DNA of 64,000 nucleotides. Source: Patescibacteria group bacterium (lineage in GTDB: Bacteria > Patescibacteriota > Minisyncoccia > UBA6257 > GWB1-50-10). The stretch covers positions 423,062 to 487,061 of the forward strand of contig JANBVK010000001.1 of the NCBI GenBank assembly GCA_024239035.1, read 5' to 3'. This document shows, in pieces, positions 57,151-60,032 of this stretch. The notes under the pieces were generated by a model. It saw nothing but the letters and a program-made list of their open reading frames with translations, was not told the origin of the DNA and searched no databases. Made by a program: the position numbers and the translations under genes. Numbering within the stretch: the first letter of the stretch is position 1; every line of letters begins with the position of its first letter.

Positions 57151-60032
57151 AATACGATTTTCAGAAAATAGAACGCAGGTGGCAGAAATTCTGGCGTGAG
57201 AAGAAAGTTTACGAGCCCCTTAACATGACTCGGGGCAAGCCAAACCTAAAGTTATCCACCAGCCGGCAGAAACCTTTCTATAACTTGATGATGTTCCCTT
57301 ATCCGTCGGCCGAAGGGTTGCATGTGGGAAACATGTATGCTTTTACCGGCGGTGACGTTTACGGCAGATTCAAGCGGATGCAGGGGTTCAATGTATTTGA
57401 ACCAATGGGGCTTGATGGTTTCGGGATTCACTCAGAGAACTATGCTTTGAAAATCGGCGTCCATCCGATGAAACAGGCTGAAATTTCCGAGAAGAGATTT
57501 TACAAACAACTTGAGATGATCGGTAATGGTTTTGCCTGGGATGAAAGACTTGAAACTTATGACCCCAAATATTACCGCTGGACTCAGTGGATTTTTGTCC
57601 AACTATTTAAGCATGGCCTCGCCTACCGTAAAAAGGCACCAGTTAACTGGTGTCCGAGTTGTAAAACCGTGCTCGCTGATGAGCAGGTTATCACGGGCAG
57701 ATGTGAACGGTGCTCGCACTTAGTTATTAAAAAAGAGCTTGAGCAATGGTTTTTTAAAATTACAAAGTATGCTGACAAACTGCTTAAAAATTTAGACAAA
57801 ATTGATTGGTCAGAACGGGTAAAAATTGCCCAGCGAAATTGGATCGGCCGTTCAGAGGGAGCAGAGATTGAATTTAGAATTAAGAATCATGAGTCAAGCA
57901 TAAAAGTTTTCACTACCCGCCCGGATACACTTTTCGGTGCGACTTATATGGTTCTAGCTCCGGAGCATGAGTTGATTGAGAATCTAGAATCCAGCATTAA
58001 TAACTTAGAGGAAGTTAAAAAATACGTTAAAAAAGCCGGAAGTGAAAGCGATGAAGAACGGATTGCCGAAGACAGGGAAAAATCAGGGGTGGAGTTGAAA
58101 GGCGTAAAAGCAGTTAACCCGGCAACAAAAGAAGAAATTCCGATATGGGTTGCGGATTATGTGTTGGGTCATGTTGGTACCGGCGCAATTATGGCTGTGC
58201 CGGCACACGATGAGCGCGACCTTGAGTTTGCGATAAAATATGACTTACCGGTTCGTCAAGTTGTAGAAGCAGAATATACGCAAATGACCGAGCCCGGTAT
58301 GGTAAAAAAAGAATTACCATTCGTTGAGCGAGATGGAATTATTGCTATTATCAAACATTGGTCCGAAGAAAAGTATATTGGATTGAAGTGGAAATCAGTA
58401 GCATGGGGTACTTGGGTTACGGGTGGTATTGAAAAGGACCAGACGCCGGAGCAGGCCGCTCGCGCGGAGGTGTTGGAAGAAGTTGGATATCGCAATCTTA
58501 GATTTGTAAAAGATTTGGGTATTGTGCATGGTAAGTTTTACCACGTGCCCAAGAAAGAAAATCGTTGGGTGCATGCCCACTGTCTTTATTTTGAGCTTGA
58601 AGACGATGCTCGCGACGAAGTATCAGAGAAAGAAAAAGCGATTCACGAATTAACTTGGCTTTCAAAAGAAGAAGTTGAAAGGTTTCTTACCCCCAGTACT
58701 CATCTATGGGCGTGGCGAAAATTATGCGGCGAGTTAGTGTATATTGGAAATGGTTATCTTAAAAATTCCGGCAAATTTGATGGTATCGCATCGGAGAAAG
58801 CTAAATGGGAAATTACAAAATTCGTCGGCGGAAAAAAAGAGATTCATTATCGTATCCGCGACTGGTTGATTTCTCGTCAGCGTTACTGGGGTGTGCCGAT
58901 CCCTATGATTTATTGCGAACGGTGTGACTGGCAGCCTGTTCCGGAAAAAGATTTACCTGTGAAACTCCCTTTCATTAAAGACTTCCGACCAAAAGGGAAG
59001 GGCCAATCTCCTCTTGCATCAGAAAAATCTTTTTATGAAACAAAATGCCCTAAATGTGGCGGCGCGGCACGGCGGGAAACGGATGTGTCGGATACTTTCT
59101 TGGATTCCGCCTGGTATTATCTTCGTTACCCTTCGACTCGCTCTGCTCACTCAGGGCAAGTCCCGTGGGACCCGGAAATTACCAAGAAGTGGTTACCGGT
59201 TGATATGTATATTGGCGGCGCGGAGCACTCGGTATTGCATCTTTTATATTCTCGGTTTTTAGCAATGGCGTTTAATGATTGGGGGCTGGTTCATTTTAAG
59301 GACGGAGAACCGTTTACTGTATTCCGTGCTCACGGTCTTTTGATCAGTGAAGGAAAGAAAATGTCAAAGTCAAAAGGGAACATTGTAAATCCGGATTTCT
59401 ATGTTAAGAAATTTGGTGCTGACGCGTTTCGGATGTATCTTATGTTTTTGGCGCCCTTTGAGCAGGGTGGTGATTTTCGCGATGCAGGAATTTTAGGGAT
59501 TACGCGGTTTTTGGAAAGAGTTTGGAAATTATTTAATAATGATAAAAAAGACAAGAAGGACATAGACAAAAACCTAGAAAAATCATTACATCAATCAATT
59601 AAGAAAGTAACAGAAGATATTGAAAATTTACATTATAATACTGCAATCAGTACGTTAATGATTTTATTAAGTAAAATGGAAGAGCAAGGAGATAAATTGT
59701 CGACTGGCATATATCAAACATTCCTGAAGCTTCTTGCTCCCTTCGCGCCGCACATTACAGAAGAATTGTGGAGCCAATTAGGGAGCAAAAAATCAATTCA
59801 TATAGAACCTTGGCCCGCATACAACCCAAAGCTTATAGAAGAAGAAACCTTTAAGCTGATAGTGCAAGTGAATGGTAAGATGAGAGATACGATAACGGCA
59901 GATACCGGAATTTCCCAAAAAGAAGCCGAGGCAATTGCCTTATCTTTAGAAAACATAAAGAGGCACATAGGGAATAAAAAAAGTAAAAAGATTATTTTTG
60001 TGAAAGATAGATTAATTAATTTTGTGATTTAA
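57147..60032 (+). CDS. leuS: leucyl-tRNA synthetase carrying a Nudix-fold insertion
   Basis: HIGH-region [14 protein letters not shown] is present. CP1 editing motifs [11 protein letters not shown] and [15 protein letters not shown] are present. KMSKS is present. An extra block of about 140 aa (about 58300..58700) lies between CP1 and RIRDW. It resembles MutT, but the leucyl-specific domain is absent. Confidence 0.85.
   Translation: [961 protein letters not shown]

Follow-up and report, generated by a model that had tools for sequence, protein, structure and literature searches.

A Nudix domain embedded in the editing domain CP1 of a patescibacterial leucyl-tRNA synthetase, and its recurrent relatives

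The architecture of bacterial aminoacyl-tRNA synthetases is regarded as conservative, and enzymatic domains nested in the editing domain do not, to our knowledge, belong to the textbook picture. The leucyl-tRNA synthetase (LeuRS) of an uncultured Patescibacteria group bacterium (GTDB GWB1-50-10; GCA_024239035.1) contains an additional block of residues in exactly this region, which raises the questions of what the block is, whether it is an accident of one genome and whether it could be an active enzyme. The gene, leuS, encodes 961 amino acids and is part of a stretch of 64 kb (contig JANBVK010000001.1, positions 423,062-487,061 of the forward strand) that is called the window in the following. 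In an earlier proposal, based on the letters of the DNA (the original prediction), the block had been described as a MutT-like Nudix domain behind the CP1 editing domain, with a degenerate and probably inactive Nudix box. It was revealed that the block is a complete Nudix domain nested within CP1, and that its relatives recur in LeuRS of many Patescibacteria. Its altered box is shared by a whole clade, and the domain is probably active.

A Nudix domain inside the CP1 region of LeuRS

The host protein was compared with family models and with a known structure. It scored 901.6 bits with TIGR00396 (leuS_bact), passing the equivalog cut-off of 548.4 bits, and the LeuRS of Thermus thermophilus (1H3N) was matched with E=2e-219. 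The editing-site residues T256, T257, R258, T261, D355 and D358 were invariant among 89 relatives in an alignment. Judged from its intact motifs and editing-site residues, the synthetase is presumably functional.

In the alignment with 1H3N, residues 384-530 of the window LeuRS remained unmatched, and the insertion point was found to lie between residues 372 and 376 of the T. thermophilus enzyme. HDxRD and RDW are separated by 209 residues in the window LeuRS and by 49-96 residues in insert-free relatives, so that the excessive spacing that had attracted attention (estimated at about 200 instead of about 60 residues) was verified. The position and length given for the block (58300..58700, about 140 residues) were also essentially right, and all peptides that had been quoted were found in the open reading frame (VERDGIIAI at residue 393, the others at residues 344, 425, 500 and 569). 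The location after the end of CP1 had to be revised. The block indeed precedes RIRDW, but the Pfam profile of the editing domain (PF13603, 212 bits) covers only profile positions 1-147 of 185 and is broken there, and thus the insertion sits in a loop within the C-terminal part of CP1 and not behind it.

The translated insert was matched by PF00293 with 37.5 bits (E=2.9e-9), exceeding the gathering score of 21.1 bits for the Nudix family. A profile of 38 family members was compared with the PDB, and 2AZW of Enterococcus faecalis was retrieved at E=5e-12 with nearly the whole domain aligned. An AlphaFold model of residues 368-545 had a mean predicted local distance difference test score (pLDDT) of 91.6; in the model of the full-length protein (pLDDT 87.5) the insert region reached 93-97. 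The alpha/beta/alpha Nudix fold of about 130 residues was present, with the loop-helix-loop at the box. The segment between the CP1 core and RIRDW is therefore a complete, independently folding Nudix domain of a specific 2AZW-like subfamily, nested in a short surface loop of CP1 in an otherwise intact LeuRS.

The proposed kinship with MutT did not hold. E. coli MutT shares the box position for position and the three glutamates of the REUXEE motif with the insert, its E44 and R52 corresponding to Q432 and A440. However, the model for MutT (8-oxo-dGTP diphosphatase, NF008044) gave 17.1 bits versus a cut-off of 148 bits, the match was confined to the box (residues 43-71 of the test segment), and MutT was absent from the top structural matches of the insert. 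Membership in this family was thus rejected. The closest structure, 2AZW (E. faecalis "MutT/nudix family protein", UniProt Q836H1), differs from the insert in being a free-standing protein of a Firmicute with the canonical box GGEIEGTETKEEAIHREVLEELGI, and the two are only 21% identical.

An assembly chimera or artefact was ruled out. The identical gene is present in a 729-kb ENA scaffold and in a Logan assembly, the codon usage of the insert is like that of its flanks (cosine 0.876 versus 0.85+/-0.03 for the control), its GC content matches the rest of the gene, and homologous fusions occur in dozens of independent metagenome-assembled genomes (MAGs).

Recurrence at three sites and in two paralogous types

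Comparison with related LeuRS revealed that the insertion is common and not a one-off. The counts that follow are from pooled, partly redundant searches, including a GTDB pattern scan enriched for one of the two domain types, and are not prevalences. A search with the full protein retrieved dozens of LeuRS of 926-1044 amino acids from Patescibacteria that contain PF00293. Among the 120 best LeuRS matches, 82 had a large insert at the site of the window, and in 80 of these it was a Nudix domain. At the N-terminal edge of CP1, 29 of the 120 had a large insert; both sites were occupied in 25 and neither in 34. An exhaustive HMMER search yielded 186 cluster representatives (50% identity) at E<=1e-30. 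LeuRS made up 121 of the best 150 representatives (116 by homology of the LeuRS backbone and five LeuRS fragments by Pfam), the remaining ones were mostly stand-alone proteins of 154-200 amino acids, and no synthetase other than LeuRS was detected as a host among these 150.

The domains fall into two types, one with the canonical glutamate and arginine in the Nudix box (E/R-type) and one, including that of the window, with glutamine and a residue other than arginine at these positions (Q-type). A scan of the GTDB species representatives with the Q-type pattern yielded 95 loci, the titles of which name Paceibacterota, Sungbacteria, Kaiserbacteria, Nomurabacteria, Zambryskibacteria, Colwellbacteria, Moranbacteria, Taylorbacteria, Berkelbacteria, Saccharimonadales and Staskawiczbacteria. 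Four loci (L007, L015, L018, L038) on contigs assigned to "Nanoarchaeota", "Woesearchaeota" or "Gammaproteobacteria" encode Nudix-bearing LeuRS of the candidate phyla radiation type that are 50-62% identical to the query alignment. For these MAGs the labels or the binning are probably wrong, and the label "uncultured Candidatus Saccharibacteria" of many others is probably unreliable.

The inserts were assigned to sites with landmark motifs of LeuRS as anchors, and non-identical domains that passed score and length filters were counted and clustered by pairwise identity instead of a tree. Three sites were found. Site A, which is that of the window, is the C-terminal loop of CP1 between HDxRD and RDW and harbours 142 E/R-type and 67 Q-type domains. 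Site B is the N-terminal edge of CP1 between NWIGRS and TTRPDT (three domains of each type). Site C is the pre-hinge loop after the first zinc module (ZN1), from the CxRC zinc motif and the YADRLL helix to NWIGRS (14 E/R-type and 17 Q-type domains). The domains clustered by type and not by site, the nearest neighbour being of the same type for 266 of 276 domains. Q-type domains from sites A, B and C and from free-standing proteins are 55-68% identical to one another, and the mean identity across types is about 33%, irrespective of whether the site is the same.

Both types often occur together. Up to three Nudix copies were found per LeuRS, and 22 of 37 proteins with several Nudix domains combine E/R-type and Q-type, either in tandem or at separate sites; tandem E/R-type and Q-type domains at site A are present in L050, L055, L060, L061 and L065. 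A very AT-rich LeuRS gene (L091:1265-3314) has three tandem E/R-type copies at the pre-hinge site and is interrupted by frameshifts; either these stem from assembly errors in runs of A, or the gene is truly split or pseudogenised. A seemingly free-standing tandem Nudix protein (P0133) was discarded because it belongs to a LeuRS with frameshifts that has three Nudix copies in tandem.

The closest relative of the window LeuRS (P0009) has a backbone that is 86.8% identical, yet it carries an E/R-type domain at site A, and the two inserts are only 38.6% identical. At the level of the sequences, this pair shows a dynamic exchange of the domain under continued selection. Insert-free forms and forms with E/R-type, Q-type or alpha/beta-hydrolase domains are likewise interleaved among backbones that are 71-77% identical. 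A parsimonious route to the single Q-type domain of the window would be differential loss from an ancestor with tandem E/R-type and Q-type domains.

Synthetases with accreted enzymatic domains are already recognized, as the curated IleRS+GNAT model (NCBIfam NF040702) shows. This is also a class I synthetase with an extra enzymatic domain, but the guest of LeuRS is a Nudix domain that is nested inside CP1 and not appended, has two paralogous types and three alternative sites and co-occurs with alpha/beta-hydrolase, HAD and Ham1 domains. In agreement with the original prediction, no description of a LeuRS with a nested Nudix domain was found in the open-access literature that was searched, and no curated model for such a protein was found either. 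Placing nucleotide-hydrolase domains within or beside LeuRS is apparently a widespread and undescribed habit of Patescibacteria.

The variant Nudix box and its bearing on activity

The box of the window domain reads G426-x5-Q432-x7-A440-E441-V-L-E444-E445-V-G447-Y448. It has the canonical length of 23 residues and agrees with the consensus GX5EX7REUXEEXGU at seven of the nine specified positions; the deviations are Gln432 and Ala440. The original prediction had noted two departures from the consensus and had identified the exchange of glutamate for glutamine correctly. The second one, which had been explained by an inserted alanine (RAE), is better described as a replacement of arginine by alanine at the canonical position with an arginine one residue earlier, because the length of the box is unchanged.

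Do these exchanges indicate decay? Among the 80 LeuRS-embedded homologues at the site of the window, 58 have a fully canonical box and 19 have glutamine together with a residue other than arginine, and the two positions covary almost perfectly. The types were also compared in a larger set of about 300 non-identical domains (104 Q-type, 172 E/R-type). The Q-type box has the form G-x5-Q-x7-[not R]-E-U-x-E-E-x-G-Y. Its position 7 is glutamine in 100% (glutamate in 99% of the E/R-type), and position 15 is alanine in 54%, methionine in 13% and threonine in 9% (arginine in 100% of the E/R-type). The glutamates corresponding to E441 and E445 are present in 100% of both types, and that corresponding to E444 in 87% of the Q-type and 100% of the E/R-type. 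Downstream of the box, the X-loop has the signature H-x-P-K-x-x-N-R in the Q-type, conserved to 97-100% (H 99, P 98, K 99, N 100, R 97%), and A-x-H-K-x-x-N-R in the E/R-type. Both types thus show hardly any variation at the catalytic glutamates, at the two glycines and in the K..NR X-loop. By this comparison, Gln432 and Ala440 are the family signature of a conserved Q-type paralogue and not a sign of decay, and the metal-binding residues and the specificity loop are under strong purifying selection.

A catalytically dead Q-type would be the alternative, towards which the original prediction had leaned. Such a pseudo-enzyme might bind a nucleotide or some other ligand and regulate or scaffold LeuRS, or it might form pseudo-dimers with an active E/R-type domain. 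Two consensus positions changed together, the Q-type is the usual partner of the E/R-type in proteins with several Nudix domains, and non-catalytic Nudix domains typically occur in multidomain proteins (PMC5389931), all of which would fit this alternative. However, non-catalytic members usually lose the glutamates of REUXEE, for example NUDT21 with RLx2EI (PMC5389931), and the 104 Q-type domains keep these three glutamates and both glycines at 87-100%. Some Nudix enzymes that deviate at exactly these two positions are active, for example YffH with D/K (GX4DX7KE...; PMC5389931). In addition, the Q-type occurs alone, both as the only Nudix domain of the window LeuRS and as stand-alone proteins of about 160 residues with a conserved neighbourhood of their own, and no further member of the subfamily was found within the 64-kb window. 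A dead Q-type is consequently conceivable but unlikely. Because the glutamates are kept and active variants are documented, the window domain is read as altered but probably active, and "degenerate, probably inactive" was too strong.

The link with LeuRS, candidate substrates and the locus

Free-standing members of the subfamily were found in several contexts. Q-type stand-alone proteins have 160-163 amino acids and the same box, and are 48-56% identical to the window insert. A free E/R-type gene (P0153) lies upstream of a leuS of 951 amino acids that itself contains a Nudix domain, with 2 bp between the two genes, and another one (P0193) ends 3 bp before a leuS without insert in three assemblies. 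Adjacency to leuS is thus recurrent, having been observed in two lineages, and not universal. In Staskawiczbacteria the Q-type genes belong to a conserved HAD-Nudix-cupin-DUF4015 block away from leuS. One gene (P0191) is located after fpg, and another (P0236) has argS on one side and, on the other, a class I synthetase gene with a His_Phos_1 insert, in a locus that further encodes a dUTPase, another three Nudix proteins and a thymidylate kinase/dNK. These other neighbours point to nucleotide-pool maintenance. Two proteins (P0215, 251 amino acids, L087:197-952; P0233, 247 amino acids) have an N-terminal domain of about 90 residues in front of a Nudix domain of the LeuRS-associated subfamily. 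This N-terminal domain has a weak likeness to HGTP_anticodon, the anticodon-binding domain of class II synthetases (18.9 bits, below the cut-off of 21), and the architecture hints at a connection to tRNA.

Nudix domains are not the only guests of LeuRS. Proteins of 1130-1230 amino acids carry alpha/beta-hydrolase domains (PF06821/PF00561/PF12697) and one carries Ham1, all located between NWIGRS...F and TTRPDT, on the N-terminal edge of CP1. Inserts at this edge are exemplified by P0010, P0012, P0083 and P0086, the last of which, from Jorgensenbacteria, contains the Ham1/ITPase domain (PF01725); alpha/beta-hydrolase domains are also present in L042, L075 and L080. A HAD phosphatase insert was found past RDW..SRQR, beside the second zinc CxxC knuckle (L046 at about 997-1155, L062 at about 828-989, L080 at about 1164-1319), and HAD-bearing LeuRS reach 1355-1702 amino acids. 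The most elaborate architectures combine three Nudix domains with an alpha/beta-hydrolase and a HAD domain (L080, 1702 amino acids), with a HAD domain (L046, 1518 amino acids) or with Ser_hydrolase (L042, 1552 amino acids). A different insert of about 120 residues without a Pfam match or a Nudix box occupies the C-terminal loop of CP1, the site of the window, in P0101 (934 amino acids) and P0124 (924 amino acids). A class I synthetase of 1184 amino acids (tRNA-synt_1, Anticodon_1 and DUF5915; L094:6094-9648) has a nested His_Phos_1 domain, and its locus contains argS, four Nudix genes, a dUTPase gene and a thymidylate kinase/dNK gene. LeuRS may therefore not be the only synthetase with nested hydrolase domains.

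The following explanation is proposed. Q-type and canonical E/R-type paralogues coexist across Patescibacteria; both have been placed repeatedly in LeuRS and are also found as free genes, some of them directly upstream of leuS. The domain would be a Mg2+-dependent pyrophosphohydrolase with a modified first-shell network, in which the E-to-Q and R-to-X exchanges are coupled and modify the network behind the metal site, so that the site is altered and not abolished. Its substrate would be a phosphate-rich nucleotide of the house-cleaning or the diadenosine polyphosphate (ApnA) type. Selection would link the Nudix domain physically and stoichiometrically to LeuRS, where it would act beside aminoacylation and editing and replace neither. 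The structural and evolutionary parts of this statement, taken alone, are nearly certain; the whole statement, with an active and modified pyrophosphohydrolase that is tied to LeuRS, is held with slightly better than even confidence.

Several observations bear on the substrate. The basic K..NR loop together with Tyr465, which follows Y448 by 17 residues, would suit a phosphate-rich nucleotide. An X-loop tyrosine about 17 residues downstream of the box is conserved in ApnA hydrolases (Dunn 1999, as cited in PMC5389931); Tyr465 sits in a predicted beta-strand, and this marker is not exclusive to ApnA hydrolases. The class of substrate is suggested, first, by the associations of the family, namely Ham1 and HAD domains in LeuRS and fpg, dUTPase and thymidylate kinase genes beside free members, and second, by the second-tier structural matches, which are dominated by hydrolases of ApnA and diphosphoinositol polyphosphates (Ndx1 1VC8, Rv2985 9CXX, yeast DDP1 and the Aquifex Ap4A hydrolase 3I7U). 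These point to the house-cleaning or ApnA-type class. The second-tier matches have only 15-22% identity and structural scores of 13-15, which are not better than those of many other Nudix classes, and the insert was far below the cut-offs of the NCBIfam RppH and Ap4A-type models.

Several points weigh against the proposed explanation. The counts on which the picture of recurrence is built are not prevalences. Gln432 and Ala440 replace two consensus residues, embedded Nudix domains of multidomain proteins are often non-catalytic (PMC5389931), and the frequent pairing with the E/R-type could make the Q-type a non-catalytic partner. The closest structure gives no substrate assignment, since the function of 2AZW is listed as "Undetermined" (PMC5389931). 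The free genes differ widely in their neighbours (HAD and cupin in the case of the Q-type, fpg, argS). A transfer of the HAD-Nudix module into LeuRS was rejected, the HAD domains of LeuRS having no specific BLAST similarity to the HAD proteins encoded next to the free Nudix genes. Furthermore, LeuRS is only a "low" producer of diadenosine tetraphosphate (Ap4A; Goerlich 1982, as cited in PMC10148737).

In another reading, the Nudix domain would be integrated into the LeuRS cycle and would destroy Ap4A or Ap3A formed from Leu-AMP and ATP, or mis-activated adenylates, in cis, as a proofreading or alarmone module on the mobile CP1. The association with LeuRS is strong, specific and recurrent, with three sites and operon adjacency; aminoacyl-tRNA synthetases produce Ap4A and Nudix enzymes degrade it (PMC10148737). 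The dominance of ApnA hydrolases in the second structural tier, the tyrosine 17 residues past the box and the presence of esterase-type alpha/beta-hydrolase domains at CP1 of some LeuRS would also agree with such a module. However, LysRS, PheRS and HisRS out-produce LeuRS in Ap4A and yet are not hosts among the 150 best representatives, aminoacyl-adenylates are not pyrophosphates, the ApnA structural scores are unspecific, free members are found near genes of DNA repair and deoxynucleoside triphosphate metabolism, and three structurally different insertion sites speak against one precise geometric coupling. A direct role on by-products of LeuRS is possible and is weakened by the low Ap4A production and by the three sites, which disfavour a fixed geometry; the integrated module is improbable.

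At the other end, the domain could be a tolerated passenger, collected neutrally or selfishly by permissive CP1 loops without a selective linkage, or at the extreme an assembly or annotation artefact. Several unrelated domains do reside in loops of LeuRS, including alpha/beta-hydrolase, Ham1, HAD and the unannotated insert of about 120 residues, another class I synthetase has its His_Phos_1 insert, and presence, absence and type of the Nudix domain vary among backbones that are 71-87% identical. The artefact was excluded above. Neutrality is made unlikely by the strong purifying selection that acts, in about 300 domains, on the residues of catalysis and of the X-loop, and chance collection is opposed by the 121 of 150 representatives of one Nudix subfamily that are in LeuRS, by the independent insertion at three sites and by the tight adjacency where the genes are unfused. 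A mere passenger is thus very improbable. Genes that fuse repeatedly and independently and also adjoin in operons are classically taken to be functionally coupled. Two accounts would fit the choice of LeuRS as host: loops in CP1 and the hinge that tolerate insertions, in a gene that is essential and expressed constitutively, or a genuine link in function.

The features of the locus are collected in Table 1. The upstream gene for a protein like an S-adenosylmethionine (SAM)-dependent methyltransferase overlaps with its stop codon the start of leuS (ATGA), and the gene for a protein of 297 amino acids without a Pfam match begins 3 nt past the leuS stop, so that the three genes look like an operon. 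A trypsin-like/PDZ (HtrA-type) protease gene is encoded on the opposite strand within a few kb downstream of leuS. Proteases of this type are also encoded downstream of free-standing Nudix genes of Staskawiczbacteria (L003:11333-12349, minus strand; L005:9921-10928, minus strand), which could be residual synteny or coincidence. Near the N-terminus of LeuRS, residues 25-40 form a stretch with a pLDDT below 50 that is longer than the corresponding one in P0009. Elsewhere in the window, a gene for tRNA-Ile with the anticodon TAT (UAU) adjoins a tRNA-Val(TAC) gene. In most bacteria AUA is decoded by a lysidine-modified CAU tRNA, and the tRNA-Ile(UAU) may bear on AUA decoding in this lineage. The genes for tRNA-Ser(CGA) and tRNA-Arg(CCT) abut without a spacer (63819/63820).

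Table 1. Coordinates of leuS, its domains and motifs, and other features of the window
Feature	Residues of LeuRS	Window position	Strand	Basis or remark
tRNA-Ile(TAT)		33994..34067	+	
MazE-like antitoxin open reading frame		56077..56319	-	
SAM-methyltransferase-like gene		56374..57150	+	
leuS, bacterial-type LeuRS hosting the insertion	1-961	57147..60032	+	open reading frame list, TIGR00396, 1H3N
N-terminal stretch of low pLDDT	25-40	57219..57266	+	
HIGH-type signature HVGN of the synthetic site	59-62	57321..57332	+	motif position; conserved in 89-sequence alignment
CP1 editing domain, N-terminal and central part	230-380	57834..58286	+	PF13603
Threonine-rich editing motif TTRPDT	256-261	57912..57929	+	motif position
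Editing motif AHDERD	353-358	58203..58220	+	motif position
Envelope of the insert, family hidden Markov model (HMM)	369-533	58251..58745	+	profile match
Inserted Nudix domain	384-530	58296..58736	+	no counterpart in T. thermophilus LeuRS; Pfam, family HMM, models
Pfam NUDIX match	419-511	58401..58679	+	PF00293
Variant Nudix box	426-448	58422..58490	+	Q432 for Glu, A440 for Arg; E441, E444, E445 kept
Predicted X-loop (specificity loop)	464-473	58536..58565	+	16-25 residues past the box; X-loop concept from PMC5389931
C-terminal remainder of CP1 and return to catalytic core	531-582	58737..58892	+	aligns to 1H3N residue 376 onward; motif positions
KMSKS loop of the synthetic site	738-742	59358..59372	+	motif position; conserved in relatives
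Anticodon-binding domain	807-920	59565..59906	+	PF08264, 86.9 bits
Gene of 297 amino acids, no Pfam match		60035..60928	+	
HtrA-type protease gene		60934..61989	-	
tRNA-Ser(CGA) and tRNA-Arg(CCT)		63732..63893	-	

The finding has consequences at several levels. It is a caution for automated annotation, as the NCBI names of these proteins are "class I tRNA ligase family protein", "hypothetical protein" or even "alpha/beta fold hydrolase". It gives a clue to the function of 2AZW, an orphan protein from structural genomics, and the natural covariation of E-to-Q and R-to-X in the Nudix box is useful for mechanistic enzymology. It is tempting to speculate, although this is quite unlikely, that LeuRS serves as a platform on which a Nudix pair, with a catalytic E/R-type and a specialised Q-type domain, rides on the swinging CP1 and acts on ApnA or aberrant adenylates or gates LeuRS according to the nucleotide state. 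If true, quality control or signalling linked to a synthetase would have a module of a new kind, in which charging and editing of tRNA-Leu are physically coupled to nucleotide hydrolysis. Across a large radiation of bacteria with reduced genomes, one Nudix subfamily is overwhelmingly found inside or beside LeuRS, and this offers a concrete and testable link between LeuRS and nucleotide pyrophosphate metabolism, be it house-cleaning, ApnA turnover or regulation.

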